Of a stretch of 45,688 bases of DNA, positions 1 through 39,702 are shown piece after piece (the stretch's first letter is position 1; each line of letters opens with the position of its first letter). The stretch spans positions 1 through 45,688 of the IMG/VR virus record IMGVR_UViG_3300022909_001346. One strand, given 5' to 3'. The stretch comes from a virus (lineage: Duplodnaviria; Caudoviricetes). Below the pieces are notes generated by a model, which had not been told where the DNA came from, searched no databases, and saw only the letters and a list, made by a program, of their open reading frames with translations. The translations under genes and the position numbers were made by a program.

Positions 1-764
1 TCTCTAGGGTGACATGCACCGCCATCACCGAAGCCAGCTTTCATATAAGCTGGACTCATAATTCTATGTGTGCTGTCAGCTAACGCCTTTGTTACTACAT
101 CAACATTAATATTACCTTGCTTCTGTGCAACGTCTTGTATCATGTTAACAAGGCTCAACTTAGTGCTAATAAAAGTGTTGTAAAATACTTTGATACATTC
201 ACATTCATCCCAAGTACCAACAACAATGCGAGGTTCATTCTCAAGAATGCCGTGATAGAAGTATATCAACTCCCCTACTTCAAGGCTATCTTCGCCATTC
301 TCGCTACCTATCATTAACATTTCAGGATTTACCATATCCCATGCAACCGTCCCCATAGCAATTAGATATGGGTTATATAAAAATTTAGCGTTTTTGATTT
401 GAGGTACGATATGCGATCTGACTGTTCCTGGAAGTACTGTAGAAATCAATACTAGAATTTGTCGGTCTGTCATATAAGAATCGACTTCTTTAATAACATC
501 AACTGCGATACTATAGTCAAAATCCTTAGGCGGTAGATGACCTGTGGGTTCACTGCCACCGTATTCTGGTGAGTGGGGAGTAGGTACTGCGACGAATACA
601 ATCGTCGCATCCTTAACCGCAGCTTCAATAGATTCTTTTTTGTTCACTCTATTTGTTACAATAGTGGGGTCAATATCGTAACCATTCACCTCATGTCCTT
701 TCTGTGCCATAACTTCTGCGCACGGTAACCCCAATTTACCTAAACCAATAAATCCTATACTCAT
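1..764 (-). CDS. ugd: UDP-glucose/GDP-mannose 6-dehydrogenase family protein (partial, runs off the left edge)
   Basis: Not in the ORF track; translated by hand from the ATG at 764: MSIGFIGLGKLGLPCAEVMAQKGHEVNGYDID (Rossmann GxGxxG). Near the window edge it reads GFGDGGACHPR (catalytic Cys motif). AAGGA RBS upstream. Confidence 0.9.
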   Translation of the reverse strand, partial: MSIGFIGLGKLGLPCAEVMAQKGHEVNGYDIDPTIVTNRVNKKESIEAAVKDATIVFVAVPTPHSPEYGGSEPTGHLPPKDFDYSIAVDVIKEVDSYMTDRQILVLISTVLPGTVRSHIVPQIKNAKFLYNPYLIAMGTVAWDMVNPEMLMIGSENGEDSLEVGELIYFYHGILENEPRIVVGTWDECECIKVFYNTFISTKLSLVNMIQDVAQKQGNINVDVVTKALADSTHRIMSPAYMKAGFGDGGACHPR

Positions 765-789
765 TGCAAAAGATCCTTATATATAATTT

Positions 790-1377
790 ATGTTTGATGC
801 CATAACTAAATTTGAAAATCAATTATCCCATTACACCGGTGCAAAGTGGGCAGTCATGACAGACTGCTGTACACATGCAATCGAATTGTGTTTTATTTAT
901 AACAAAGTAACCAAGACATCGTTTACACCGTACACCTATCTCAGTGTTCTGATGCTTATGCACAAGTTAGATATACATTATAACTTGTTAGACGAACCGT
1001 GTCAAGAATGGATTGGAGAATATTCATTTGATAATACCAATATATGGGATAGTGCTAGAAGACTTGAAAGGGGCATGTACAGACCAGGTAGTATGCAATG
1101 CCTAAGTTTCGGTCATAGCAAGCCGCTTGAAATAGGTAGAGGGGGTGCAATACTGCTCGATGATCCAACAGCTTACAAGGCATTAAAAGAAATGTCATAC
1201 GATGGCAGAGACTTGTCTATATCACCCTGGCAGGATCAGAAAGAATTCAGAGTAGGCTATCACTACAAGCCAACAATTGAAGAAGCAAAAATCGGCTCCA
1301 GACTGCTAACAGAAATTAAAGAACAAAGCCAATTCATAAAATATCCGGATTTAAGAAATGTACGCATCGTCACATAA
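790..1377 (+). CDS. Short DegT/DnrJ/EryC1/StrS-family PLP-dependent aminotransferase
   Basis: FENQLSHYTG..AV..DCCTHAIEL, WDSA (PLP-binding Asp), LSFGHSKPL (Schiff-base Lys), GRGGAIL. Only 195 aa. Confidence 0.8.
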   Translation: MFDAITKFENQLSHYTGAKWAVMTDCCTHAIELCFIYNKVTKTSFTPYTYLSVLMLMHKLDIHYNLLDEPCQEWIGEYSFDNTNIWDSARRLERGMYRPGSMQCLSFGHSKPLEIGRGGAILLDDPTAYKALKEMSYDGRDLSISPWQDQKEFRVGYHYKPTIEEAKIGSRLLTEIKEQSQFIKYPDLRNVRIVT

Positions 1378-2269
1378 CGAGTGGGACCCATTAGAACATG
1401 TCATTATAGGAAGTGCAACAAACGCGCATTGGCCTGAGAGATGTGAAATATATCGTAAAAACGAAGAAACTTCATTATGGAAAGAGACGCCTCTGCCAGC
1501 TGGACCGGTAGACCCACTAGTCATAAAACAAGCAAACGTCGATCTATGGAATCTTGGAAATGAATTGCTGCATTGGGCTAATATATGGGAACCAAGAAAA
1601 TTAGACTTCGCTGCGTTTGATGGTTTGTATAACTACTGCCCAAGAGATCGGGTATTGATAATAGGTGATCGTGTAATTGATGTGCCCATGACATATCCCA
1701 CTAGAGAAAAAGAAATCGAAGCATTGGAGTGGATTTTTGATAACGAGATTGTAACTAGCGACAATCCAATGGCAAGATTTGATGCTGCAAACGTGTGTCG
1801 TTTAGGAAAGGATTTATTGTATCTTGTAAGTTCTACTGGCAATCTTGAAGGTGCGAAATGGTTGCAAGAGTATTTAGGCAAAGATTATAAAGTGCATGTG
1901 CTAGATGACATCTACAGCGGCGTTCACATTGATAGCACAATCAGCCCTGTGCGAGAAGGGTTAGTAGTACTGAATAAAGATCGAATCAAAAAAGTACCTG
2001 AAGTATTTAAGAAGTGGGATATTATTTGGATGGGCAAAGATGATCTAGTACATCAACCATTTGTAGATTATCCGTATGCAAGCAATTACATCGGGTTAAA
2101 TTTCCTAACAGTGAATCCTGAAAATGTAATATGTGATCCTAAACAAAATGTATTGATAGATAACTTGCATAAATATGGTATAAACGTCACTGGTGTTGAC
2201 TTACGACACAGCAGAACACTCGGCGGCGGTCATCATTGTGTAACATTGGATATTGTGAGAAAAAAATAA
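1358..2269 (+). CDS. Amidinotransferase (glycine/inosamine-phosphate amidinotransferase family)
   Basis: HNEWDPLEHVIIG N-terminus, YCPRD, FDAAN (Asp), HIDST (His), RTLGGGHHCVTLD (Cys): the Cys-His-Asp triad is intact. Confidence 0.9.
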   Translation: MYASSHNEWDPLEHVIIGSATNAHWPERCEIYRKNEETSLWKETPLPAGPVDPLVIKQANVDLWNLGNELLHWANIWEPRKLDFAAFDGLYNYCPRDRVLIIGDRVIDVPMTYPTREKEIEALEWIFDNEIVTSDNPMARFDAANVCRLGKDLLYLVSSTGNLEGAKWLQEYLGKDYKVHVLDDIYSGVHIDSTISPVREGLVVLNKDRIKKVPEVFKKWDIIWMGKDDLVHQPFVDYPYASNYIGLNFLTVNPENVICDPKQNVLIDNLHKYGINVTGVDLRHSRTLGGGHHCVTLDIVRKK

Positions 2270-2760
2270 TGTGGGTGCGTGGTCATATTACCAGGTCTTG
2301 GGGTGAAAATTACAAGCAGCTTAGATATTTGCAAGATCCAATAAGAGGTGCGCAAGAACAAGAATGGCGAAAACAGGGATACTACAACACCCGTCAATAT
2401 GGTGAAATGTATGGATATCCAAATGAAATGCCTTTATGGGCTGAGTTTATTGCATCTGAACTAAAATTATTTCAGTGTGGATTTGTGTTATACCGAATGA
2501 AAACTCTAGACATAATGCCAATGCATACTGACCATTACAAGAAATACTGTGAAGTGTTCAACACGAATCCAAATGAAGTGTGGCGAGCAATTGTATTCTT
2601 AGAAGATTGGAAGTCCGGTCACTATTTTGAAATAGATGAAGAAGCAATTGTTAATTGGCGAGCTGGCGATTTTATTATGTGGCAAGGTGATGTGCCGCAC
2701 GCAGCAAGTAATATAGGAATAGAAGATAGATACACTCTGCAAATAACAGGGCAAAAATGA
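2269..2760 (+). CDS. 2OG-Fe(II) oxygenase/cupin-like protein
   Basis: MPMHTD...PHAASN...RYTLQIT gives HxD...H...R. The ATG at 2269 overlaps the upstream TAA (TAATG). Confidence 0.7.
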   Translation: MWVRGHITRSWGENYKQLRYLQDPIRGAQEQEWRKQGYYNTRQYGEMYGYPNEMPLWAEFIASELKLFQCGFVLYRMKTLDIMPMHTDHYKKYCEVFNTNPNEVWRAIVFLEDWKSGHYFEIDEEAIVNWRAGDFIMWQGDVPHAASNIGIEDRYTLQITGQK

Positions 2761-3890
2761 TACACTTTGAGCAAACTTTATATTATTGGAATGTACCAGG
2801 ACACGATGATTACGCAGGGTTTTTTGAAAACCATAGAGAAGGTGGCTTCTTCAATAACTTCTCTGACACAAATCCAATATTTGTATTTACTGGTGTGCAA
2901 GACATCCCGTTTGATGCAACAGGAATTGATTTAAGCCAGATTGAAGAAATAGATTTTTACTTATATGAGCCTAGCACCTATTACAACATCAACGAAGAAA
3001 AGAAATCTTGTTATTTTTACCACGAAGATTTGTGGGAAGAAAATAGCAACTTACGCTCACACGAATTAGACACATTAGCCGCGCTGAGTGAAAAGTTTGG
3101 CACTAAGATAAATGTCTTCACCTCTGATTACAACATCAACAAATATTACAAAGAAACATATCCTAACTTGACGTTGGCTACCTTTGATACCTTTTTACGA
3201 CAAATAGGAAACGGTGGCATATACCCGGATGATCTGCTAAAGACAAGAAAATTCGTATCACACAACAAAAGATTTGCAATGCATCGCCTAGTTACTGTAA
3301 GTGCTTTACAAGACAAAAACGCAAACTATACATGGCCCTTCGTTATGGATTGTGATTTAAAATCTACTGCTTGGTACGAACATGAGAACCTACCGCAAGT
3401 ACACGATAAAATAGTAACACCCAGACTGATTGATGTCCAAACACCAATGCATATTGCAGATTTAACGCATGCGGGTAGAGCGCCATATGTTGCAGAGTTT
3501 TGCCCAGGAGATCTTGTGACTTCTATGTCAGAAGCCTGCATCGCAGTAGTAAATGAAACTAGATTTGGGCAACCAACCGCATACTTCAGTGAGAAAACAT
3601 TTGACGCAATGCGATGTATGATTCCGTTTATACTAGTCGCGCCCCCATACACACTAGAATATTTAAGACAGTTTAAGTTTTATACTTGGGGAGCTTTCTG
3701 GGATGAAAGGTACGATAAAATTGAAAATCACACTAAACGAATAGACGCTATAATAAAACTGATTGAACACCTAGATACTTGGACGATTGACGACATGCGA
3801 GAAGTCATTCGACAGGCAGAATGGGGAATCAATCGAAACTTACAGCAAGTCAATCAGTTCATCTCTAACTCAACCATCCTCTATCAATAA
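2757..3890 (+). CDS. Putative glycosyltransferase (GT10/fucosyltransferase-like C-terminal motif)
   Basis: AVVNET...YFSEKTFDAM...PFILV...FWDERYD resembles the GT10 E-x(n)-Y/F-x-S/T-EK motif. Paralogue of 4743-6023. ATGA coupling to the upstream gene. Confidence 0.55.
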   Translation: MIHFEQTLYYWNVPGHDDYAGFFENHREGGFFNNFSDTNPIFVFTGVQDIPFDATGIDLSQIEEIDFYLYEPSTYYNINEEKKSCYFYHEDLWEENSNLRSHELDTLAALSEKFGTKINVFTSDYNINKYYKETYPNLTLATFDTFLRQIGNGGIYPDDLLKTRKFVSHNKRFAMHRLVTVSALQDKNANYTWPFVMDCDLKSTAWYEHENLPQVHDKIVTPRLIDVQTPMHIADLTHAGRAPYVAEFCPGDLVTSMSEACIAVVNETRFGQPTAYFSEKTFDAMRCMIPFILVAPPYTLEYLRQFKFYTWGAFWDERYDKIENHTKRIDAIIKLIEHLDTWTIDDMREVIRQAEWGINRNLQQVNQFISNSTILYQ

Positions 3891-4746
3891 ATTCCTTACG
3901 CATTTCATTTGCTATGTAAGCATGTCCCTTATAATTTGGATGACAGCATCTGCTAACATGTGGAGTGCCTTTAGGATACGCATCGTTATAGTTTAATCCG
4001 TCCCAATATCCTCCATTGGCGACATCATAACTAAACCCATCGTTGTTTAATAACATATGAAATGCAGAAGGGTGTCCTTCAGGTTTCCACATCTGAGAGG
4101 GCAAATCCCATGGAAGGTTAATAGTGTCCCAAACTTTACCTGGGGTCCATCTTGCTACATAACTAAAATCAAATGCCGAAACTAGCATCAACTTAGCATT
4201 GTATAGTTTACACCAATCCTGCACCTGTTTGATAGCGAAGTAAGTGAGCATCATAGTTTGCTTTTCACTGTACATGTCATTAGCATATGCACGCCATAGT
4301 GGGTTGTCCGAATTAGGGTCAGGCCATATAGATTGAAACACGCCATGAAAACGTTCTCCCCATTCAGAGTTAATTATCGAATAGCGTTCAGGGCCCGACA
4401 ACATAAAAACAACAATCTTTTCTTTACTAGTATCTTCCAAATTAAGTTCAGGGTAGAGAGAAGTAAGACTTTGTGCAGCCGCATAATTTCCCGCACCTCG
4501 CGCTCCTAAATTTATAGGAGTCCAATCAGGATAATGATTGTTACAAAATTGTGTTACCCAGCTTCCTTCTATTTCAACTGCTTCTAAATGAGTAATGCAA
4601 TGTGTATTAGGAATGTTCCAGTTATAGGATTCCCATACCTCATCTTTAAGACCCCCCTGACCCTGAGTGAAGCTACAACCAGTGCCTATGAATAACTTAT
4701 CATTTTTAGAATTCTTTTTAAGTTGCGCATAATTTTCAGGTGTCAT
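3865..4746 (-). CDS. SGNH/GDSL hydrolase-like protein
   Basis: FIGTGCSFTQG (block I), NLGARGAGN (block II), CCHPNYKGH (block V). Confidence 0.65.
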   Translation of the reverse strand: MTPENYAQLKKNSKNDKLFIGTGCSFTQGQGGLKDEVWESYNWNIPNTHCITHLEAVEIEGSWVTQFCNNHYPDWTPINLGARGAGNYAAAQSLTSLYPELNLEDTSKEKIVVFMLSGPERYSIINSEWGERFHGVFQSIWPDPNSDNPLWRAYANDMYSEKQTMMLTYFAIKQVQDWCKLYNAKLMLVSAFDFSYVARWTPGKVWDTINLPWDLPSQMWKPEGHPSAFHMLLNNDGFSYDVANGGYWDGLNYNDAYPKGTPHVSRCCHPNYKGHAYIANEMRKEFIDRGWLS

Positions 4747-6023
4747 GTAAGATAGTCCGTGTAGTATTCTTTCAATTTAGTAAAACTCGTATTTGGCTGG
4801 GAGCTATTTCTCATCAAGGTGTAATAGTTATAATCTAACACCTGTCGCATTTCTTCAAACAGTGACATCTTATCAGGAATTTTGTCGATGTCATGCATCA
4901 GTTTTATAATTGCGTTATAACGTTCCCATGTAGGAAGATCGTCGTAGCTCTCATCCCAAAAATCTGAAAACGTTTTGTAACCCAATTCTTTTAGTACCTT
5001 GAGCGAACCTCTGTTGCCAAATATAATAAAAGGACTACGCAGCCCAATTGCTTTGAAAGTTTTCTCACTGACAAACGTGGTGCAATCATTGTCAAAGAAA
5101 CTAGCCTCGCTGATAACAGTGAACCACGTTTGCAATGTAACTTCTGAGTTCAAACGCTCAATGTAATACGCATCAGATTTGGAACTATTATCAGGACCAC
5201 AAGGAAGTTCTTGCATCATATCTTCTAGATCGTAGGTATATCGTTTACCTTCAACTGTATAATCATCTGGGTGATCAAAGGGGATCTTCTGCATACTGAA
5301 TATACCCTTTGTAAGAAACCCCTCATACTTCAATGTAGAATAAAACCAGCAGCGATGTAATCTAGGTCTTTTTTGCATCACATTGAAAGTCAACGTTTCA
5401 TTGCTAGACTTATAATTTATGTGTCTGTTCACCGACAGCGGGGACGCTGAATTGAATATAAATTTATTTCCTATAGCCTTTTCAAAGTGACAGTGTCCTA
5501 TAACTTTTGCAGTGTTTCCTTGTATGCCGTTTTTGAAAATCCACTTACGATACTGCGATTCTGCTTTATAATTGCCAGTTATAAAAACAAGGCTTTGTAT
5601 CGGTAGTTCAGACTCTGCCATGACTTGATGGAACCAAGGCCAAAGTTTTTCATCATGATACCCTTCAAGTGATGAATCCAATACAAGAATGCATTTACCT
5701 TCTCGCATTTTTCTCTTTTGCATCTCAGACAAATATCGAGTGAATGGTTTTTGCCCTTCATTCCAACCAGCCCAATCATCTGGGTTAGTATTGACACCCA
5801 CACAAATTGCAAAATGATCTTCTCTAATAAGACAAGAAGTGACCCCATACCCATTTTCCCATGCTTCATTTGCAACAGGAGCTGTGCCAAAACACAACTG
5901 ACCACCTGATGTCTTTGCATCCGAGTTTATAAAATTGTGTAGGAGAGTAGGGTCATTTGTACCTTCATCATGCAACAGTGGGTGGTTATCAAAATATAGA
6001 TTCATAGCATTGTATACATTCAT
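4743..6023 (-). CDS. Putative glycosyltransferase (GT10-like C-terminal motif)
   Basis: TVISEASFF...FVSEKTFKAI...PFIIFG...GYKTFSDFWDESYD aligns by eye with 2757-3890. ATG at 6023 chosen as start. Confidence 0.55.
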   Translation of the reverse strand: MNVYNAMNLYFDNHPLLHDEGTNDPTLLHNFINSDAKTSGGQLCFGTAPVANEAWENGYGVTSCLIREDHFAICVGVNTNPDDWAGWNEGQKPFTRYLSEMQKRKMREGKCILVLDSSLEGYHDEKLWPWFHQVMAESELPIQSLVFITGNYKAESQYRKWIFKNGIQGNTAKVIGHCHFEKAIGNKFIFNSASPLSVNRHINYKSSNETLTFNVMQKRPRLHRCWFYSTLKYEGFLTKGIFSMQKIPFDHPDDYTVEGKRYTYDLEDMMQELPCGPDNSSKSDAYYIERLNSEVTLQTWFTVISEASFFDNDCTTFVSEKTFKAIGLRSPFIIFGNRGSLKVLKELGYKTFSDFWDESYDDLPTWERYNAIIKLMHDIDKIPDKMSLFEEMRQVLDYNYYTLMRNSSQPNTSFTKLKEYYTDYLT

Positions 6024-6025
6024 TA

Positions 6026-7024
6026 TTATAGAAGTCGTTCTTTCCAAGTTTCGGGTGCATTATCAGAAATCTCAAGCCCAAAGCTATAGTCGAATTCTTT
6101 AGGGCCTTTTTCTTTTATGTATGCGACAGTTTTTTCAATAGCCGTCTTAACATCTGTTTTAGTTTCGTAGCCAAGAAGAGTACGAGCCTTATCACTTGAG
6201 CATGTAGCGTACTTAACTTCCTTGGGTCTATCTGTAGTATGTATAGGCGTGTGTTTGAATTTGCATGCCTTAGCAACTAACTTAGCAGCTTCATTGATAG
6301 TTATAGGATTCTCATCAGGACCTATATTCACAATTTCACTTTGTATATTTGAATCTAGTGCGAGTTTTTCAATACAACTAATACAATCATCAATATAAGA
6401 AAAGCATCGCAACTGATTACCATCACCATATATGTATGAGGGAAGTTTTCGCAAGTTTCTGTTAGCCATAATGCTCAACACGTTTCTATACGGATCATCG
6501 TAACGCTGTCTTGGGCCAACGATGTTGTGAGGTACGGCAATATTCCATTGCATCCCATGCACATCGCATAATGATTTTAAAGTCTGCTCGGCTGCAACTT
6601 TTGCAATTCCATACGGGTCAACAGGAGCAGTTTGCATCTCTTCAGTAAAGGGAGCCTCTTGATTTCCGTACCTAGCCATGCTACTACAAAAAACAAATCT
6701 ACCAACGTTAGCTGTTATCGCAGCCGACATTGTAGACACACTCGCCTCGTAAATGTTTCTTGTAATAAATGAGGGACTAAACACTGATAGCCCTTCATGA
6801 GCAGTCGCTGCACAATGCACTACTATATCATATCCGTGCAATATAGATGCCATCAAGTGACGGTCTCTACAATCAAAATCATACAGCATTACTTTGGGAT
6901 TGACATTATCCCTGTAGCCACCTAGAAAATTGTCATTGCCACCGACTTTATATCCTAACGAGAGGAATTTGTCCGCCAGATGACTGCCTAGAAATCCCGC
7001 CACACCAGTTATAAAAATCTTCAT
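6026..7024 (-). CDS. NAD-dependent nucleotide-sugar epimerase/dehydratase (extended SDR)
   Basis: MKIFITGVAGFLGSHL (TGxxGFxG), HCAA, SS..RYG, YGIAK (YxxxK), NIVGPRQ, GDGNQLRCFSYIDD. Confidence 0.9.
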   Translation of the reverse strand: MKIFITGVAGFLGSHLADKFLSLGYKVGGNDNFLGGYRDNVNPKVMLYDFDCRDRHLMASILHGYDIVVHCAATAHEGLSVFSPSFITRNIYEASVSTMSAAITANVGRFVFCSSMARYGNQEAPFTEEMQTAPVDPYGIAKVAAEQTLKSLCDVHGMQWNIAVPHNIVGPRQRYDDPYRNVLSIMANRNLRKLPSYIYGDGNQLRCFSYIDDCISCIEKLALDSNIQSEIVNIGPDENPITINEAAKLVAKACKFKHTPIHTTDRPKEVKYATCSSDKARTLLGYETKTDVKTAIEKTVAYIKEKGPKEFDYSFGLEISDNAPETWKERLL

Positions 7025-8384
7025 ACTCAGGGAATGTCTCCAAAAAGTTTGTATCACGCCGACGGTCGTATTCATTGAACCAGTTATAGAAGTCCGCCCA
7101 CCCTTCTTCTAGCTTTTCATCTTCGTAGTTAGTGTTCTGCATATAATCATGCACACGCCTAAACTTTTCATATTCCATAGTTTGAAACATTGTAGGATCG
7201 TCATCATCTACATTTTCAAATATGAAAGCCAAGCACTCTGTAATATAAGGCATGAAATGTTCTTTAGGTAGAATATTCATGTCGTAGTGCAAAGGCTCTT
7301 TCAGATACGGTGTGTCAAATCTAATTGTGCGTCCTGTATCATGAGAATTTGAACTAGGTACAATAATGCCCTCATATGTTTTTCTCCATTCTAGAATCTT
7401 CTCAAGCAAAGATTTAAATGTTGTAACAGTCAACGCATTGAAAGTGACCATCAATGTTATAGGAGTTTTTGCTGTTCTTGCATAAGTGTCAAGATTCTTT
7501 TCCCACAACTCTAAGTCTAGTCCAGTGCGAATATACTCTGCTCTCTCGTTCCAACAGTCAATGCTTGTGTATAGCGAAAAGTCTTTAATCTTGTTTTCAC
7601 TTCTGAGTTCATTTACAGCTTCTGCAAGTTTAACAACGCGCCTAGTTTGCACACCGAGATTCGTGTTTACGCTGATCTCCATATGAGGCTTTGGATTTGC
7701 CTTCAACTCTTCAAACACTCTGTAAGTAGACTTATGCAATAACGGCTCACCTCCTGTGATGCGGAGTATGTTCAACGTCTTAGAAACTTCAGGCCACCAT
7801 TTCCACCAAGCAGTGACATAAGGATTTTCTTCTTCAACGCTGATCAAATCAGTACCCAGATCTAGTCGGTGATTCTTCACCATATCATACGGGCCAAACT
7901 TTTTAATTTCTTGCGCTAATCTGCTTGATGCATTGGGGTGACAATAACCACACTTGAAATTACACTCATTACTAAAAGAGATTTCGATGTAATCAGGATT
8001 CGCATCGAAGTCCCAAGGCTGTTCCTTGACTTCTTCTAAACGCTCAGGTGTATAGATGCTTGCTGATCTGATAGTTCTGTCAGACACATAGTCACGACCC
8101 ATGTCTTCAACATTCCAACAATACTGACAACCCTCACACTTCTCACCATTGAGCATTTGCTTTCGCTCTTCTTTTTTGTGAGGGGTGTTATGTAACGATG
8201 AAGGGTTCGCGTCTAAATCCTCGAGAGGAATGTGATGCGGTGCTGGGTGATAGCATGAATGTGTCATGCCTGTTTGCAGATACAACTGAGTATGGTACCA
8301 CTTAGCAAAACAGAATGTAGGACTCAATTCTTTGTCCGTAATATCACGCAAGACAAACGCTTTCTTCATATTGTCATCATTCAT
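6948..8384 (-). CDS. Radical SAM enzyme with an N-terminal Cys-rich (twitch/SPASM-like) region
   Basis: CNFKCGYC (CxxxCxxC) and ITGGEPLL. Extra cysteines in FCFAKW, HSCYH and CEGCQYC. ATGA-coupled start at 8384. Confidence 0.85.
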   Translation of the reverse strand: MNDDNMKKAFVLRDITDKELSPTFCFAKWYHTQLYLQTGMTHSCYHPAPHHIPLEDLDANPSSLHNTPHKKEERKQMLNGEKCEGCQYCWNVEDMGRDYVSDRTIRSASIYTPERLEEVKEQPWDFDANPDYIEISFSNECNFKCGYCHPNASSRLAQEIKKFGPYDMVKNHRLDLGTDLISVEEENPYVTAWWKWWPEVSKTLNILRITGGEPLLHKSTYRVFEELKANPKPHMEISVNTNLGVQTRRVVKLAEAVNELRSENKIKDFSLYTSIDCWNERAEYIRTGLDLELWEKNLDTYARTAKTPITLMVTFNALTVTTFKSLLEKILEWRKTYEGIIVPSSNSHDTGRTIRFDTPYLKEPLHYDMNILPKEHFMPYITECLAFIFENVDDDDPTMFQTMEYEKFRRVHDYMQNTNYEDEKLEEGWADFYNWFNEYDRRRDTNFLETFPEYEDFYNWCGGISRQSSGGQIPLVRI

Positions 8385-9004
8385 TTCTTCACACCCCAAA
8401 CCATAAAACGTTCATATTGTTTATCATTAGGCCCAGCAAACGTCCACTGAGACATGCCTTGTATATACTCATTTCCCACATTACTTATGTACAAAAAATC
8501 CTCAATAGTTTTAGAGCATCTAACATGCTCTCCATTGTCGAAATAATTATTGCCTTGTAAAAAGAAGCTAGTACCCCTTGGTACATTGTTCCACCACATG
8601 TCATAATCATCCTGTCGCAAATGCTCAGTCACCGTATTTATCACAACAGAGGGTATGATAGGATACTTGTACGTTGCACAATCAGCAGTAACAGCGGTTG
8701 CATTGTGTTCTCTAGATATAACATCATTAAACACCCACTCACACTGCGGATCAATGTCTATACTATATATCCATTCAGGATTAAAGTCAAGCGAGTCTAA
8801 CACCATTTGTGTCAGTACGCCATACCAACCACCGAAGATATACAACGGGCCTCGCATGTTAGGCATCTTTTCAAGTTCTATCAGCAAACGAGCCTTACTC
8901 TCTAGCTGACTTCCCCAGAAACAATCCATATATCGTTCTGCTAGATCGGGATGAAATCTAATAAACTTCATCCAGCTTTCAATTGTACTAGCCTTAATTT
9001 CCAT
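8381..9004 (-). CDS. Class I SAM-dependent methyltransferase-like protein
   Basis: YIFGGWYG (motif I-like), SIDIDP (acidic motif II), TADC, VINTVTEH. Confidence 0.65.
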   Translation of the reverse strand: MEIKASTIESWMKFIRFHPDLAERYMDCFWGSQLESKARLLIELEKMPNMRGPLYIFGGWYGVLTQMVLDSLDFNPEWIYSIDIDPQCEWVFNDVISREHNATAVTADCATYKYPIIPSVVINTVTEHLRQDDYDMWWNNVPRGTSFFLQGNNYFDNGEHVRCSKTIEDFLYISNVGNEYIQGMSQWTFAGPNDKQYERFMVWGVKK

Positions 9005-9776
9005 AATTTACCTGAAATTCTTTTGCAACGAATGAATGATATATTGGTCCAGGGTGTAATAAATCTCTGCCTAAATTGCTTTGAGCGGCAGATCTGAATG
9101 GTTCCTCCCATGAACGAAGCGGGCGTGTGAGTCCTTCTATGACTTCTTCCGCAAAAGGTTCAAGAACATCTAGTGACACATTGTGAGAATCGCAAAGTCC
9201 TTTTATAGCATACAACGCTCTAGACTTTGATATAGCTGCTTCTCTTTCATTCAAGAACCTATGAGCATCTCCAGGAAAATAACGTCCAGTAGACCAAGCA
9301 CTGAATGTGTGGTACATGTGAGGCGTAAAGTCCATGTTAAAGAATTCACGCCTCACTCCTGGATTTGTGAGTAAAAATACATGTTTCGATTTAAGTATAG
9401 GCAGCCAATACTGCAAGACTCTAAACATTGTTTCGACGCCACATGCTGGTGCGCCTAGGTTATAACCATGCATGTCAAGCGATTCACTTAATACGCTAGG
9501 CCAAGATTGCTCCTCTGTCACACCTACGCCAAATGTACAACTGCAACCAAGTGCAATGAAGCTATCCGATTTTATAGGATGCAAGTCATCCCCTCGGAAT
9601 CCGTGCGAGTTTACTCTATACGTTATTGAATCTTCGTCCCACGGGAATCGTTCCAAATACTCGCTTTTGCTTTCTTCAAATTTCTTCTTGGTATCCGGCG
9701 GGTACCAGTCATAAGTTTTTCCATATTGCATGCCGTTAAATAACGGAATACAACTATCCGGATCAAGATCACTCAT
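8994..9776 (-). CDS. SGNH hydrolase-like protein
   Basis: NSHGFRG, ALGCSCTFGVGV...WP, NLGAPACG, GRDLLHPG. ATGA-coupled start at 9776. Confidence 0.7.
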   Translation of the reverse strand: MSDLDPDSCIPLFNGMQYGKTYDWYPPDTKKKFEESKSEYLERFPWDEDSITYRVNSHGFRGDDLHPIKSDSFIALGCSCTFGVGVTEEQSWPSVLSESLDMHGYNLGAPACGVETMFRVLQYWLPILKSKHVFLLTNPGVRREFFNMDFTPHMYHTFSAWSTGRYFPGDAHRFLNEREAAISKSRALYAIKGLCDSHNVSLDVLEPFAEEVIEGLTRPLRSWEEPFRSAAQSNLGRDLLHPGPIYHSFVAKEFQVNYGN

Positions 9777-10333
9777 TTCCAAACCACACAATCTATAGGA
9801 TTCATGCTATACCCCTTATCTTTCAAATCAATATAATAAACATTCTGCAACATAGTACTTTTTGGATCAACCTGAAACAACCATCTTTCATCATGCTTCA
9901 AGCGACTCCAAAAAGGATCATTTTGTAGATGTGTGTATCCTGCAGGCGTTCGCTTCTTTTGATAGATTGCATTCAACGCTCTGTTCTTAACATCGTGTGT
10001 CCAGTAGACACAATCATAATCTCTGTCAGTAGCCCAGTCAATCATAGCAGGTAATATAAACCGTGTACCTAATGCCTGATTGCGATATTGTTTCAATGCA
10101 TGAAATCTGCATGCTCTTAAAACTTTAGCGTCTTTCGTAGCATAATGGTCTTGTTCAATTACACCAAGTGCGGCAATCTCATTTTCACCCGTAACATAGA
10201 AAGTCTGCCCATTCAGATTATCAGGATCGAATTTAGATTCTGCTAGTGCTTCATTGCCTTCTGCAAAAGTATTCTGTCTGAAATCTTCAACTTGCGATCT
10301 TACTTCGGAAGTGTATTCTCTAACCTCAAACAT
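9773..10333 (-). CDS. GNAT-family acetyl/acyltransferase
   Basis: RFHALKQYRNQALGT resembles the acetyl-CoA-binding motif A; RALNAIY follows. Confidence 0.55.
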   Translation of the reverse strand: MFEVREYTSEVRSQVEDFRQNTFAEGNEALAESKFDPDNLNGQTFYVTGENEIAALGVIEQDHYATKDAKVLRACRFHALKQYRNQALGTRFILPAMIDWATDRDYDCVYWTHDVKNRALNAIYQKKRTPAGYTHLQNDPFWSRLKHDERWLFQVDPKSTMLQNVYYIDLKDKGYSMNPIDCVVWK

Positions 10334-11001
10334 TCTATATCCTCTTGACCACCTAATGTACCTAATAAGTAGTATCTAATGTCGTCGCCATTGTGAAAAA
10401 CCGCATGCTTATAACCAACGTTTAAAAAATACGCTTTACCCTCTTCCATCTCATAATCAAACTCTTCGCCGCGGTGATAAAATCGATTGACTACGCCACT
10501 GTTACCAGATATAGGTATTATAAAACGAACCGCGTATGTTGTGTTATAATCAATATGCGGAGGCACCACACACCCTGGTAGCATTCTTGACATTCGCAAT
10601 CGTATGATAGGCGCATCAAATGATGCGCTCAACGTATGCATCAAATCAGTGCCTTCATAATGATCAAGCGGTTTGTGCCATCGATACTCATCCATTGTAG
10701 GGTGTATGTTTGCATTTCTACGCAACTTATCTTTTGGTGAGAAACTTGTGAACGATGCAGTGGTAGGTTCATCGTCTGCTTCAAAGTCAAGTCCTGTAAG
10801 ATGGTAATGCTCGATAAGTCCAAGGGTAGAGTCTGCAACTTCGCCATTGTTCACACATAATCCGCCATGAGCGGTGTAATTGTCTTGCCATCTATGCATA
10901 TTCGCTGCAAGATATGCGTTGAATACATCCATATTCACTGCAATAGGCAATTCAGCACAAAGAGGATAATCTCGTTTTTTATACTTTAGCATTTCGATCA
11001 A
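10300..11001 (-). CDS. Asp/Asn beta-hydroxylase-like 2OG-Fe(II) oxygenase
   Basis: RLRMSRMLPGCVVPPHID...RFIIPI...GKAYFLNVGYKHAVFHNGDDIRYYL (HxD...H...R). Confidence 0.75.
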   Translation of the reverse strand: MIEMLKYKKRDYPLCAELPIAVNMDVFNAYLAANMHRWQDNYTAHGGLCVNNGEVADSTLGLIEHYHLTGLDFEADDEPTTASFTSFSPKDKLRRNANIHPTMDEYRWHKPLDHYEGTDLMHTLSASFDAPIIRLRMSRMLPGCVVPPHIDYNTTYAVRFIIPISGNSGVVNRFYHRGEEFDYEMEEGKAYFLNVGYKHAVFHNGDDIRYYLLGTLGGQEDIECLRLENTLPK

Positions 11002-11689
11002 TCAGTCTAATAAGTTGCCCGCCTATATCAAGAGGGTGCCAGAGAACCTTTCTAGGGTCTGCGTGATGTGGTGCATGAAAGCCTTCACCAAATGTAATTA
11101 AGCCAACCCAGATATCACTATGCGCCTGCCTATTCCGGTGCGAATATGTAAACACTAGAGAGCCAATAAGTTTAGCAAGTCCTGCAGGTGCTAACCAAGC
11201 GTATATCAAAGCAAACGGATCAAGTACAAACAATAAGTATGCCCAGAAAAATATGATAGGCCAGTAGTATGCTACTTGCAATCTATATCTTTTATTTCGC
11301 AGCATGTCTCGGCACAATGAAAAATCAATCTTTGCCATCACTTGTAAAAAGTAAGCACGAAACACGCCTCTGTAATACGGCGAATGTGGGTCAAGTTCGG
11401 TGTCTGTGTACTTGTGATGTTCTCTGTGATTTGCAACCCAGACTATCGCAGGACCGACCATCATAATATGAGCAAAGAATGCCATCGTAAACTCAAGCCA
11501 TGCAGGGCAGACAAAGGAGCGATGTGATAAAAGACGATGATATAATATCGTAATTGATGACATTATACAAGCATAAATTGCAAATGTAATACCTAACTGC
11601 CAAGGCGTTGCATACATGAATAGAGGAACGACAGATAGCATTGCAACTAGCTGCCCTAACAATAAAGTCTGTGGTAAATATTTACCCAT
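10979..11689 (-). CDS. Membrane fatty-acid (delta-9-type) desaturase
   Basis: Three His boxes (HRLLSH, HREHH, FGEGFHAPHH), DPHSP and hydrophobic transmembrane segments. Confidence 0.88.
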   Translation of the reverse strand: MGKYLPQTLLLGQLVAMLSVVPLFMYATPWQLGITFAIYACIMSSITILYHRLLSHRSFVCPAWLEFTMAFFAHIMMVGPAIVWVANHREHHKYTDTELDPHSPYYRGVFRAYFLQVMAKIDFSLCRDMLRNKRYRLQVAYYWPIIFFWAYLLFVLDPFALIYAWLAPAGLAKLIGSLVFTYSHRNRQAHSDIWVGLITFGEGFHAPHHADPRKVLWHPLDIGGQLIRLIDRNAKV

Positions 11690-17994: not shown

Positions 17995-18184
17995 ATTCTC
18001 CTATCTGTTTGAATGTGCGGCGACTCTTGCTAAACTGTTTCATGGGCTTGCTAAAGGTAGTGAGTCCATAGTCATTCTCATGGGCAACTAGCCAACCCTT
18101 CTCATTGATATGATAGATTCCATTGGGAATGTTCTGTTCGCCCCAATCGGTTGTTTCTTGCAATATCTTAATCGACATAATCAT
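17984..18184 (-). CDS. Hypothetical protein
   Basis: 66-aa ORF overlapping both neighbours in the operon. Confidence 0.6.
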   Translation of the reverse strand: MIMSIKILQETTDWGEQNIPNGIYHINEKGWLVAHENDYGLTTFSKPMKQFSKSRRTFKQIGEYDA

Positions 18185-18812
18185 AGATCCTATCTATTTC
18201 TGTTGGGCAATTGAGAAAAAAATCTGCAACTGCCACGTGCCAAGCTGTACCAGGATGTAAACCATCAGCAGCCGTCGGGTGCATCTCTAAATGCCTTGGA
18301 TTCTCATCTAAGTTAGTAGATCGCATAACTCTGAGTTCAGCGCCATACCTTCTACACATTTCTATGATAGCATAGTAGTTCTTTTTCTTGCTCATTGCAA
18401 GTTCTTTTTTGCCTAAAAGGTCAACTAAGCCTCGCTCTTCAGCGTTCCAGCCCCCGATCACACTGAAAGGTGAAACATGATGCAGGATCTTCATTGTTGA
18501 CTTTTCTAGCAACACTTCGCGTCGAAAGTCTGATGGTGTTTGAATGCAGACAATACGCGGCTGTACGATAGGAAGATATCTAGAGATTTGTCTGAATACC
18601 GAATCCGCTCCTCCACCAGGAACTCCTAGATTGTATACAGGTAGTCCGATCTTCTCTTGTAGTATTCTTGCCCAAGTGTCTTCACGCTCCATACCGACAC
18701 CCCAAGTACACGAACAGCCTAGTGCAAAGACCGAATCTCTATTATACTCTATTGGATGATCAATACGCTCAACTAACTGATCATGATCTTCAATTCCAAA
18801 CTCACTGGTCAT
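18168..18812 (-). CDS. SGNH hydrolase-like protein
   Basis: ALGCSCTWGVGM...TW, YNLGVPGGG, ADGLHPG. Confidence 0.7.
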   Translation of the reverse strand: MTSEFGIEDHDQLVERIDHPIEYNRDSVFALGCSCTWGVGMEREDTWARILQEKIGLPVYNLGVPGGGADSVFRQISRYLPIVQPRIVCIQTPSDFRREVLLEKSTMKILHHVSPFSVIGGWNAEERGLVDLLGKKELAMSKKKNYYAIIEMCRRYGAELRVMRSTNLDENPRHLEMHPTAADGLHPGTAWHVAVADFFLNCPTEIDRIYDYVD

Positions 18813-23001: not shown

Positions 23002-23427
23002 TTACCATCTGATATCCCTCATCCATGTATCAACCGCATCTTGCTTGAGCGTATTCTGTTTTAACTGATAGTCATCTATTGCTGACTTGATAGCATCTTC
23101 CGCTAATACGCTACAATGTATCTTTACTGGTGGGAGGGCTAGTTCTTCTGCGATCTCCGTATTCTTTATTGTATATGCAGACTCCAAAGTCCTTCCCTTG
23201 ACCCATTCCGTTAACAGGCTGGATGAAGCGATTGCGCTTCCGCATCCATACGTTTTGAATTTAGCGTCAGTGATGATACCTTCCTCAACCACAATCTGAA
23301 GTCTCATTACGTCACCACAAGCAGGTGCGCCTACCATACCCGTACCTACATTAGGATCCGCAGCGTCTAGCTTACCGACGTTGCGTGGATTGTCATAGTG
23401 ATCCATTACTTTATCGCTGTATGCCAT
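23002..23427 (-). CDS. iscU: Fe-S cluster assembly scaffold IscU
   Basis: MAYSDKVMDHYDNPRNVG, GAPACGDVM, FKTYGCGSAIASSS, LPPVKIHCSVLAEDAI. Confidence 0.96.
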   Translation of the reverse strand: MAYSDKVMDHYDNPRNVGKLDAADPNVGTGMVGAPACGDVMRLQIVVEEGIITDAKFKTYGCGSAIASSSLLTEWVKGRTLESAYTIKNTEIAEELALPPVKIHCSVLAEDAIKSAIDDYQLKQNTLKQDAVDTWMRDIRW

Positions 23428-25626: not shown

Positions 25627-26424
25627 TTACTCAGGAAAGAGTACAGGAGAGTGCGTAGGATCGGGTAGTGTGAATGCCGCTCCGATGTTTTGATGTGTGA
25701 ATGTCCAGGGGTCAGCAGAAACGAACAGCTTGGCATACTCCTTCTGAACCAGTCTACCTGGGTGTACTAGGTCTCTACCCATAACGCCAATAGCGTGTCC
25801 CCCTTGCGTTCCAATAGCAGGGTGTATCATATACATGTTAGCACCAATTGAGTCACAAATACCCTTGATGCCACATAGAGCCGTGGAGTTTAGTAAAAAG
25901 GCATTCTCCTGACTCAACATTGTCATGGCTACTTCATCAGACGGGTCACTCCAACCCCCGTGTGGCGCCCAAGTAGAATCGTGAGGGTAAAAATACTCTA
26001 TGCGATCAAACCCTGGAGCTAGGATATAGACATTCTTGGGCTTGAGCAGTAGAGCAAAATGCATCGCTATACGAAACGCGCCCATCAGCCCATGTCCAGG
26101 CATACCGAAGTTGTAGATGTGTCTATCAGTCAGTCCCCCCAACATACTAGGCCAAGTGTCTTCCTTATGCACTCCCATGCCATATGTGAAACTACAGCCT
26201 AGAGCCATGTCGCCTTGGAGTCGGTAGTCTCGCTCTTCCCTGAAGCCATACTCATTGGTAGTGTAATTTAGGCTGTATGCTTTAGCCTTGTTATCCCAGC
26301 CGTGAGTTTTCAGTGCATCACGGTCTTGGTTGAGATACATCTCCTCGGTATCACCTGTCATCCATGCAGAGTTGTAGTTACAAGGTTCAGATCCGAATAG
26401 CATACTTCGAGGGCGTTTTATCAA
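25627..26424 (-). CDS. SGNH hydrolase-like protein
   Basis: NEYGFRE, ALGCSFTYGMGV..TWP, NFGMPGHG, GRDLVHPG. Confidence 0.7.
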   Translation of the reverse strand: MIKRPRSMLFGSEPCNYNSAWMTGDTEEMYLNQDRDALKTHGWDNKAKAYSLNYTTNEYGFREERDYRLQGDMALGCSFTYGMGVHKEDTWPSMLGGLTDRHIYNFGMPGHGLMGAFRIAMHFALLLKPKNVYILAPGFDRIEYFYPHDSTWAPHGGWSDPSDEVAMTMLSQENAFLLNSTALCGIKGICDSIGANMYMIHPAIGTQGGHAIGVMGRDLVHPGRLVQKEYAKLFVSADPWTFTHQNIGAAFTLPDPTHSPVLFPE

Positions 26425-27167
26425 TCAAGTTGCCCCATGCGCTTCAGTACTTGGTATGAGACATATCGATGCTGCCTTCTACCAGGACTCATTAGGTCTC
26501 TGCCGTAGTCAGGCTCGTCGAGTAGTTCTACCTCAGGAGATATGTGAATAAAGGTAGAGTTAAACTGATTACACAATGATTGCATAGCCCTGAGTACCAT
26601 GTCCCGTCTAATCTTTTCCATTGGTCGCACATCACCTGGGATGAATTCGCTTATAAGCTCCTCACCCTCAAATCGCTCCCATTGGCTCAAGGAGTCATGC
26701 TGCTCCTGCAATACTACATACTCCGACTGTAGCTGCGGTAACCACGCGAGAAGCAGCCTATACTGCGATTCTAGCGACGAATTGGGTTTAGCTAGTGTGA
26801 TTGCACGATGCCCTAGCTTACTAGCCACTAGATGAGGCCAAGTCATGGGTTCTGGTACGCCTACACCGAAAGCCATGTTAGACCCTAATGCGATCACCGC
26901 GCGTGGTGCAGCAGCAAAGGGCATTTCATTGCAGCGGAATCCGTGTTTGTTGATTCGATACCTAATGTCCACGGTGTCATGATCAAGGGGACTTGTTATA
27001 CTCCAGGGATACTCGCCGTTAGACATCTCTTCCCAGCCATTGGCTAGAAGCTCTTCTGGTTCGTTTTCCTTGTTGAATTCGTACCGTAGTTCCGTGTCGG
27101 ACTCTATGAATTTAGCTGAATAAGGTTCGACTTCCTGTCCACTGGCGTAATAATAAAAGTCTTCCAT
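26421..27167 (-). CDS. SGNH-like protein with degenerate catalytic residues
   Basis: NKHGFRC, ALGSNMAFGVGV..TWP, GRDLMSPG (Ser to Asn and His to Ser relative to paralogues). Confidence 0.65.
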   Translation of the reverse strand: MEDFYYYASGQEVEPYSAKFIESDTELRYEFNKENEPEELLANGWEEMSNGEYPWSITSPLDHDTVDIRYRINKHGFRCNEMPFAAAPRAVIALGSNMAFGVGVPEPMTWPHLVASKLGHRAITLAKPNSSLESQYRLLLAWLPQLQSEYVVLQEQHDSLSQWERFEGEELISEFIPGDVRPMEKIRRDMVLRAMQSLCNQFNSTFIHISPEVELLDEPDYGRDLMSPGRRQHRYVSYQVLKRMGQLD

Positions 27168-38918: not shown

Positions 38919-39104
38919 CTAGTTTTCTACTGCCCATTCGATCAGTTCGGTGTAACCACCGATAAACTCATCATCGATGTAGATTTGAGGCACTCTACCC
39001 TCAGGCTGTTCTTCCTCAGTATACTCAATGTCCATACCCTGTAGAAACATTTTAGCTTCAGTGCAAAATTTGCAATCGTCGCGTGATTTAATTAATACCT
39101 TCAT
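38919..39104 (-). CDS. nrdC: Glutaredoxin
   Basis: CKFC...VPQIYI...IGGY. Confidence 0.88.
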   Translation of the reverse strand: MKVLIKSRDDCKFCTEAKMFLQGMDIEYTEEEQPEGRVPQIYIDDEFIGGYTELIEWAVEN

Positions 39105-39702
39105 CTTTCCTCCCAATTTCGTTAAAAGCCCATGCACGTTCTTTGCACCAAGGGCAGTACCCGCATCTACCCTCATCTTTCTCAGTGCAAGAATGCGTGA
39201 TGTTCATTATATCATACGCAATGCCTAAATCAAAGGCTAATTGTACCGTTACATCCTTAGTGTAATCAAAGAAGGGCTGAATGCATAAATGCTCTGCTCC
39301 CCAGCTGCTAGGATGCTGCCGCTGATGCTCAGGTGCCATGCCATCATAATACTTATTCGTACCTACATATACTACATCAGCGTGATTGTCTTTGATGATC
39401 TCCCAAAGCCCACTTCTCACATACCTAGATACATCTTCAGCAGTGACGCTGCCTACAAGTGTAGTTTCACCTTCATAGCCAGATTGCTTTATGACTTCAT
39501 TAGCCCATCTTTGAGCACCATCTATCTTAGGGACAGTGTACGGTTTGCACTCCTGTCCTCTTTTCTTGCACTCGTTATACACGATGTGCCACAGCACCGC
39601 GCTATCCCAACCACCTGATACTGAAACGGCTATGCGTTTATCGTGGGGGATAGCATCTGCAATTACTTCAGCCTTCACACGCCACACAATTGTCTTCATC
39701 AA
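39088..39702 (-). CDS. QueC-like PP-loop ATPase
   Basis: VSVSGGWDS (PP-loop) and THSC...RCGYCPWCKER (QueC-type Zn site). Confidence 0.75.
   Translation of the reverse strand: MMKTIVWRVKAEVIADAIPHDKRIAVSVSGGWDSAVLWHIVYNECKKRGQECKPYTVPKIDGAQRWANEVIKQSGYEGETTLVGSVTAEDVSRYVRSGLWEIIKDNHADVVYVGTNKYYDGMAPEHQRQHPSSWGAEHLCIQPFFDYTKDVTVQLAFDLGIAYDIMNITHSCTEKDEGRCGYCPWCKERAWAFNEIGRKDEGIN

Follow-up and report, generated by a model that had tools for sequence, protein, structure and literature searches.

Streptidine synthesis, the pathway to which the name StsC belongs, is among the closest described counterparts of the phage gene cassette analysed here. As described in PMC13707489, its amidinotransferase StrB1 acts after oxidation and transamination. 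A related gene set is found in the cultured Synechococcus phage S-SCSM2R (PQ898602), where a half-size DegT-family enzyme (mini-DegT), an oxygenase and an amidinotransferase are encoded by ORF305, ORF308 and ORF309. PMC12801897 names ORF305 and ORF309 ‘antibiotic synthesis genes’ of unclear purpose and reports a second amidinotransferase and an oxygenase from virion preparations, possibly as carry-over. This second amidinotransferase, ORF266 (L403:18354-19247), adjoins two oxygenases. Here we report on a block of five genes (UDP-sugar dehydrogenase, mini-DegT, amidinotransferase, oxygenase and glycosyltransferase-like protein) at the beginning of the IMG/VR virus record IMGVR_UViG_3300022909_001346 (Duplodnaviria; Caudoviricetes). 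“The window” denotes the whole stretch analysed, 45,688 nucleotides (45.7 kb) with an estimated completeness of 28%.

The cassette shares with streptidine synthesis the amidinotransferase subfamily of StrB1 (1bwd), including the catalytic triad and the motif before the catalytic His, a pyridoxal phosphate (PLP) aminotransferase and a glycosyltransferase in the gene set, and the logic of oxidation, transamination and amidination. It differs in being phage-borne, in an amidinotransferase about 45 amino acids (aa) shorter and an aminotransferase of half the size, and in having an oxygenase and a UDP-sugar dehydrogenase instead of inositol enzymes, with no kinase. By this comparison the cassette would work like the amination and amidination steps of streptidine synthesis, yet it is not a streptidine pathway. 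In S-SCSM2R a 195-aa mini-DegT (39% identical), a 164-aa oxygenase (31%) and the amidinotransferase (34%) lie within 3.7 kb among glycosyltransferases, but the gene order differs, GT25-like and GT2 genes replace the GT-B family found here as neighbours, and the dehydrogenase (28% identical) is 35 kb away. The sugar aminotransferases of the DegT/DnrJ/EryC1/StrS family share fold and PLP-site residues with the mini-DegT but measure 360-435 aa against its 195 aa. Phage 7-deazaguanine DNA modification of the DpdL type is the usual home of mini-DegT in lake jumbo phages, and one such operon (L179) hosts dehydrogenase, oxygenase, mini-DegT and amidinotransferase; this modification system was, however, found neither in the window fragment nor in S-SCSM2R. 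The accessible part of Cui et al. (bioRxiv 2023.04.13.536721) reports no sugar or guanidino derivative of 7-deazaguanine. Campylobacter phages of the CP220 type likewise carry an amidinotransferase among radical SAM and glycosyltransferase-like genes, but it is 24% identical and falls outside the StrB1-like group, and 13 kb of that region held no match to the oxygenase or the mini-DegT.

Results and discussion

Our survey suggests that the five genes work as a unit, an optional tailoring cassette recurrent in aquatic phages, because they occur in three gene orders, were lost jointly in two phages and include mini-DegT fusions. From 183 fetched loci, 180 had an amidinotransferase open reading frame (ORF); removing redundancy at 90% left 114, and flanks of 2.5 kb were available for 72. 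The samples consist of the best 80 matches per scan and are thus biased, and related phages do not count as independent. In their 2.5-kb flanks around the amidinotransferase, the 72 loci carried the transferase in 64 cases, the oxygenase in 61, the dehydrogenase in 44 and the mini-DegT in 23, the oxygenase being the commonest direct neighbour (47/72). The oxygenase accompanied mini-DegT in all 23 of its loci, which fall into three gene orders (11, 11 and 1), and 21 of them had all four genes. In a sample drawn by the neighbouring radical SAM gene, an amidinotransferase was present in 46 of 80 loci, each time together with the transferase family, and 31 loci had mini-DegT (16 non-redundant). 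This sample also revealed a second amidinotransferase lineage, of the S-SCSM2R type, with the same transferase and often mini-DegT; the pairing is repeated in two further amidinotransferase lineages, this one and that of L007-L011. Two phages of the window's own lineage (L314 and L315) have its island with the genes on either side; what is missing, and nothing else, is the dehydrogenase, mini-DegT, amidinotransferase, oxygenase and transferase together with one SGNH-like copy, and no amidinotransferase was found elsewhere in these partial records. The UDP-sugar dehydrogenase belongs to the cassette, a point missed by the first-pass annotation. In three jumbo phages (G002, G003, G005) mini-DegT and amidinotransferase lie 100-150 kb apart; an amidinotransferase is present in 7 of 8 jumbo-phage records with mini-DegT that are at least 60% complete, and mini-DegT in 3 of 5 unlinked amidinotransferase records at least 51% complete.

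The amidinotransferase can be assigned to the StrB1 type from its sequence relationships. Among relatives of solved structure it scores highest with StrB1 (193 bits, against 117 for HsvA, 109-111 for AGAT and 97 for SxtG), and a 47-sequence profile preserves this ranking (262 against 149-158 for the others). The phylogeny that had been proposed as a check points the same way: in a tree of 64 sequences (48 of the 114 non-redundant loci, the window, five other phage paralogues and ten plasmid proteins, StrB1 itself not among them) the phage group joins StrB1-like bacterial plasmid proteins with support 98/94, and proteins labelled as glycine-type fall apart from it. The Cys-His-Asp triad described as intact aligns with the triad positions of StrB1 and is nearly invariant among aligned relatives (Asp142 in 117/118, His190 in 118/118 and Cys294 in 115/115). 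Before the catalytic His, the window's Y-S-G-V-His resembles the Y-A-S-T-His of StrB1, and the Asn-Pro-Met of AGAT is replaced by Ser-Gly-Val. The Asn at this site has a functional role in AGAT. Relatives are encoded on 378 viral-contig stretches, and one of the StrB1-like bacterial proteins comes from a Streptomyces cluster that also has DegT and phosphotransferase genes. The result corrects the labels ‘glycine amidinotransferase’ and ‘antibiotic synthesis’ for such auxiliary genes.

The proposed DegT-type aminotransferase stood the comparison in its fold and PLP residues but not in its size, being half the normal length and missing the small domain. Its predicted model (pLDDT 93.8) matches sugar aminotransferases at Z 15.5-18.2, perosamine synthase, ArnB, WbpE and DesI among the known ones. 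The alignment covers residues 40-96 and 178-252 of the 373 of perosamine synthase; about 35 N-terminal residues (the arm), some 40 residues within the chain and the greater part of the C-terminal small domain are missing. Accordingly the chain is not the full two-domain one of DegT sugar aminotransferases (~370 aa), but the model does present a fold-type I PLP domain, and the Schiff-base Lys111 and the pyridine-binding Asp87 are kept in 35/35 relatives. A truncated or broken DegT gene is ruled out, since a large and conserved family shares the short form, whose fold is predicted with high confidence: among the best 150 representatives, 117 measure 180-265 aa and 137 have the SF...K motif. In sugar aminotransferases the N-terminal arm and small domain hold the nucleotide sugar; the mini-DegT lacks these parts, and amination and amidination may therefore follow sugar transfer. 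An aminotransferase of 195 aa would be unusually small for a fold-type I enzyme. Four of 21 long mini-DegT relatives are fused to the transferase family of the cassette and one to its oxygenase family, all of these being gene calls at the protein level; one further long protein bears GT4 and FkbM domains. HNH or endonuclease VII domains on four others were set aside as probable mobile-element joins. Two loci have a 292-298 aa class I/II PLP-like protein in place of mini-DegT (L051:5379-6254, L136:3082-3975; weak Pfam match, E 0.012), with relatives in L222, L269 and L270. Flavobacterium phage immuto 2-6A, in whose genome no amidinotransferase was found, has a mini-DegT (gp172, L275:11968-12612) in a glycosyltransferase cluster, adjoining a full-length WecE-like aminotransferase.

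The HxD..H motif read in the 163-aa protein is invariant in its relatives (His86 and Asp88 in 90/90, His144 and Arg154 in 91/91, numbered from 2269), which marks the protein as 2-oxoglutarate/Fe(II) oxygenase-like. It falls into an ESM Atlas cluster of which 19% of the members match PF05118, its homologue in S-SCSM2R is ORF308, and a PDB sequence search returned no useful match. The PHROG label ‘DNA endonuclease V’ (E 2e-4) is ruled out by the invariant iron motif.

Of the GT10-like protein of the first-pass annotation, the GT-B fold was recovered and GT10 membership stayed an unproven lead. The model of the 377-aa transferase (pLDDT 85.5) has a predicted GT-B fold across the whole chain (Z 7-10, root-mean-square deviation (rmsd) 4-6), and 49 of the 50 structure matches listed are GT-B-type proteins. 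T4 beta-glucosyltransferase is the top match listed (Z 10.3, rmsd 5.4, 262 aligned), and the GT10 enzymes reach Z 8.0-8.9 (FUT11 8.9, alpha-1,3-FucT 8.4). The family is left open because the GT10 enzymes score among unrelated GT-B proteins and below T4 beta-glucosyltransferase; in the Atlas the GT10 lead scored 0.79-0.80. E103, E267 and E279-K280 are invariant, none of 50 family members had a Pfam glycosyltransferase match, a PDB sequence search gave nothing useful, and hhalign against S-SCSM2R ORF240 aligned the TEK motif at a probability of only 0.3.

The arrangement as first described, four overlapping plus-strand genes with a divergent UDP-sugar dehydrogenase, is real (Table 1): the ORF coordinates agree, and a contig of a separate 2021 marine run spans 1-2977 and 2979-4197 without gaps. 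The overlaps measure 20 nt, 1 nt (TAATG) and 4 nt (ATGA) in order, and the dehydrogenase starts at 764 on the minus strand, 25 nt from the mini-DegT start; 254 of its 381 aa (the N-terminal part) lie inside the window, the full length being present in L094. A TTG start at 2236 for the oxygenase is unlikely because close relatives have 163-166 aa. All four plus-strand proteins are acidic (pI 5.0-6.3). Elsewhere the window encodes ribonucleotide reductase, primase, thymidylate synthase and NifU, and near-identical sequence occurs in salt-marsh and marine metagenomes.

Table 1. Features of the cassette and the adjoining island in the window.
Feature	Position	Strand	Basis
UDP-glucose/GDP-mannose dehydrogenase family protein	1..764	-	Pfam PF03721/PF00984, PHROG 9148
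Divergent intergenic gap, 25 nt, AT-rich	765..789	.	late-promoter-like in relatives (weak)
Half-size DegT-family PLP enzyme (mini-DegT), 195 aa	790..1377	+	PF01041 E 2e-11
StrB1-like amidinotransferase, 303 aa	1358..2269	+	StrB1 similarity, Asp142/His190/Cys294
2-oxoglutarate/Fe(II) oxygenase-like protein, 163 aa	2269..2760	+	invariant His86-Asp88-His144, Arg154
GT-B fold glycosyltransferase-like protein, 377 aa	2757..3890	+	predicted structure
Glycan-tailoring island around cassette	3865..11689	-	unknown ORF + genes given in the text
Second GT-B paralogue in island	4743-6020		
NDP-sugar epimerase/dehydratase in island	6026-7024		

Three RNA runs cover nearly all bins of the region, at the level of contigs only; DNA carry-over may account for this coverage. 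Sigma-70 sites are at chance level (12 against 15.2). TAAATA occurs at 50 of 76 module junctions, compared with 26.9 in shuffled sequence, but is not specific to the module because 34 of 36 other divergent junctions carry it as well. The divergent gap holds no exact match to TATAAATA, which we take to be the T4 late promoter consensus.

We consider it most probable that the cassette equips a phage-made glycan with a guanidino group on one of its sugars, the likeliest carrier being the virion (tail fibre) or another surface, and give this reading a probability of about 0.5; that a guanidino sugar is made on a glycan of any kind is distinctly probable. The gene anatomy, catalytic residues, predicted folds of two proteins, linkage and fusions are established here, and the reactions, their order and the target are those we infer. 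The dehydrogenase would oxidise a UDP-hexose to the uronate, and the oxygenase or the nearby epimerase/dehydratase would provide a sugar carbonyl, which the half-size PLP enzyme would transaminate. The amidinotransferase Cys would then carry the amidino group of arginine to the new amine with release of ornithine, and the GT-B enzyme would attach the sugar; alternatively, amination and amidination would take place on a sugar already transferred. The guanidino-sugar interpretation of the first-pass annotation is thereby supported in part, by the StrB1-type enzyme, the co-occurrence and the fusions. The surroundings are those of a glycan-tailoring island, with a twitch-domain radical SAM protein, GNAT, an AspH-like oxygenase and a desaturase among its further genes; L314 and L315 keep the first five genes of the island. 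On either side of the window's cassette are genes for a carbamoyltransferase and for SGNH-like and GNAT proteins, and tail, tail-fibre and virion genes precede the island in L377 and L326, two of the four loci for which flanks were analysed.

Several observations weigh against this reading. The window's island is not beside recognised tail genes, and no match to this transferase family turned up in S-SCSM2R. The 2.5-kb flanks lack mini-DegT in 49 of 72 loci; of 5 unlinked records with a completeness of at least 51%, 2 yielded none; and none of the 21 long mini-DegT proteins is fused to an amidinotransferase. Among loci centred on mini-DegT, 80 of 83 have FolE and 2 of 83 a window-type amidinotransferase, so mini-DegT may serve another route there. 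The StrB1-like bacterial relatives also stand in non-cyclitol contexts, with a peptide ligase and an aldehyde dehydrogenase in Robbsia and a fusion to a tRNA-ligase-like domain in Amycolatopsis; this group spans peptide-type contexts, and the subfamily therefore does not fix the acceptor. The Amycolatopsis fusion gene (plasmid, L396:4375-6549) adjoins a TauD oxygenase and phosphotransferases.

The same chemistry might instead extend 7-deazaguanine modification and decorate a sugar or base amine of phage DNA, which we regard as unlikely. The 83 mini-DegT loci carried, besides FolE, GT4-like genes (70), QueD (65), a DpdL-motif protein (59) and a DpdA-like protein (37). A single run in L179 comprises DpdA-like, DpdL, glycosyltransferase, dehydrogenase, oxygenase, mini-DegT, FolE and amidinotransferase genes, L051 is similar, FolE directly precedes the amidinotransferase in L136, a DpdA-like gene occurs in 4/4 near-complete jumbo genomes, and T4 beta-glucosyltransferase is the top fold match of the transferase. 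That match, however, is only about 1 Z unit ahead of unrelated GT-B enzymes, and all four proteins are acidic. The complete S-SCSM2R genome holds the trio with no match to FolE, QueD or a DpdA profile of narrow reach, which fails on phage immuto 2-6A as well; the G019 trio lies ~28 kb from FolE, and DpdA, FolE and QueD are missing from the window, a record 28% complete. The DpdA label itself follows from neighbours and from a motif that we take to be that of the transglycosylase; Pfam and PDB searches with the DpdA-like protein gave nothing. The DpdL motif is that given by Cui et al. (bioRxiv 2023.04.13.536721). Set against S-SCSM2R, the FolE-rich loci and the L179 operon indicate that the deazaguanine link is real in one large lineage and not obligatory. 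A hydroxymethylcytosine route was set aside, as the window's thymidylate synthase reads, by its motif, as the ThyX type.

Side observations add to this deazaguanine context. In L192, L193, L194 and L195-L274 mini-DegT usually has an NDP-sugar epimerase on one side and FolE on the other; the operon also contains DpdA-like, DpdL-motif, QueD and GT4-like genes and is a candidate pathway to glycosylated 7-deazaguanine. Pseudomonas phage Paride (L276; Paride_0115-0117, 0121), in whose genome no amidinotransferase was found, has unannotated DpdA-like, GT-B and DpdL-motif proteins adjoining QueE, and in this cultured phage a sugar-bearing deazaguanine could be tested for directly. The cultured cyanophage Synechococcus phage BUCT-ZZ01 (L277) has QueE, QueD, FolE, a DpdL-motif protein and a GT4-like gene that shares 69% identity with its lake-phage counterpart. 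A second, distant amidinotransferase family (~350 aa) occurs inside deazaguanine loci (L201, L202, L210, L255, L256, L267, G026), and G026 appears to hold several pentein-family paralogues. After the amidinotransferase, L179:7873-11253 and L051:9814-11735 encode a Bmp nucleoside-binding protein and a DIOX-type oxygenase, with a formate-dehydrogenase-like gene in L179; the L179 contig is filed in a bacterial metagenome-assembled genome (MAG) and looks phage-like. In the window a short QueC-like PP-loop gene (39088-39702) lies between two ribonucleotide reductase genes.

Rather improbable is a non-sugar acceptor (a hydroxylated amino acid, polyamine, peptide or protein side chain), for which oxygenase and amidinotransferase would form the core and the sugar genes would decorate something else. 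The frequency of the oxygenase as direct neighbour, the two oxygenases beside S-SCSM2R ORF266, the peptide-type clusters of StrB1-like plasmid enzymes and the membership of HsvA, SxtG and AGAT in the same family all agree with it. These three enzymes act on non-sugar substrates, as does a DegT-type enzyme in the case of ficellomycin (PDB title Fic25). The most constant partner, however, is the transferase family (64/72 and 46/46), which is fused to mini-DegT in four clusters, and dehydrogenase and transferase were lost jointly with the trio.

That the genes are independent optional decorations, sharing a glycan island and a promoter with no single pathway, would fit the freely shuffled islands and the distances of 100-150 kb in G002, G003 and G005; it is quite improbable in view of the three gene orders, the joint loss, the fusions and the pairing with two other amidinotransferase lineages. 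A diffusible aminoglycoside-like antibiotic, suggested for S-SCSM2R in PMC12801897 and in keeping with the StrB1 likeness, is very improbable: the window's annotated genes and the recurrent neighbours scanned include no inositol-pathway enzyme, aminocyclitol kinase or resistance gene, whereas the Streptomyces and Mycobacterium plasmid clusters have phosphotransferases. Least credible is a metabolic glycine amidinotransferase making guanidinoacetate or creatine, in line with automatic labels such as K00613 in viral contigs (table of PMC8226683) and with a discussion of creatine-pathway genes in ocean viruses that concerns the methyltransferase (PMC11360552), but about 80 bits farther from the window's enzyme than StrB1 is, and at odds with its tree position and its missing AGAT Asn.

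Among further genes of the window are four paralogous SGNH/DUF6473-like proteins (8994-9776, 18168-18812, 25627-26424, 26421-27167; 26-31% identical), two more of which flank the L094 cassette, and AspH-like oxygenase, fatty-acid desaturase and NifU/IscU genes (10300-11689, 23002-23427).

Conclusions

Our literature search, mostly without subscription journals or supplements, found no characterised phage amidinotransferase pathway or product, in agreement with the first-pass annotation, which knew of none. As a tentative wider view, the cassette might give aquatic phages a miniature counterpart of streptidine synthesis with which a guanidino sugar is assembled directly on a macromolecule. In some lineages this would be a virion glycan; after a merger with the 7-deazaguanine operon, it would be DNA with a sugar-bearing purine. 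The cassette is widespread and present in a cultured phage, so the proposal is testable now. If true, viruses would have their first guanidino-sugar glycoconjugate, and a half-size PLP transaminase would help to make it. On virions, a cationic guanidino sugar could alter how they adsorb, how they decay or how well they resist glycan-binding defences; as a DNA mark, it would amount to a new hypermodification.

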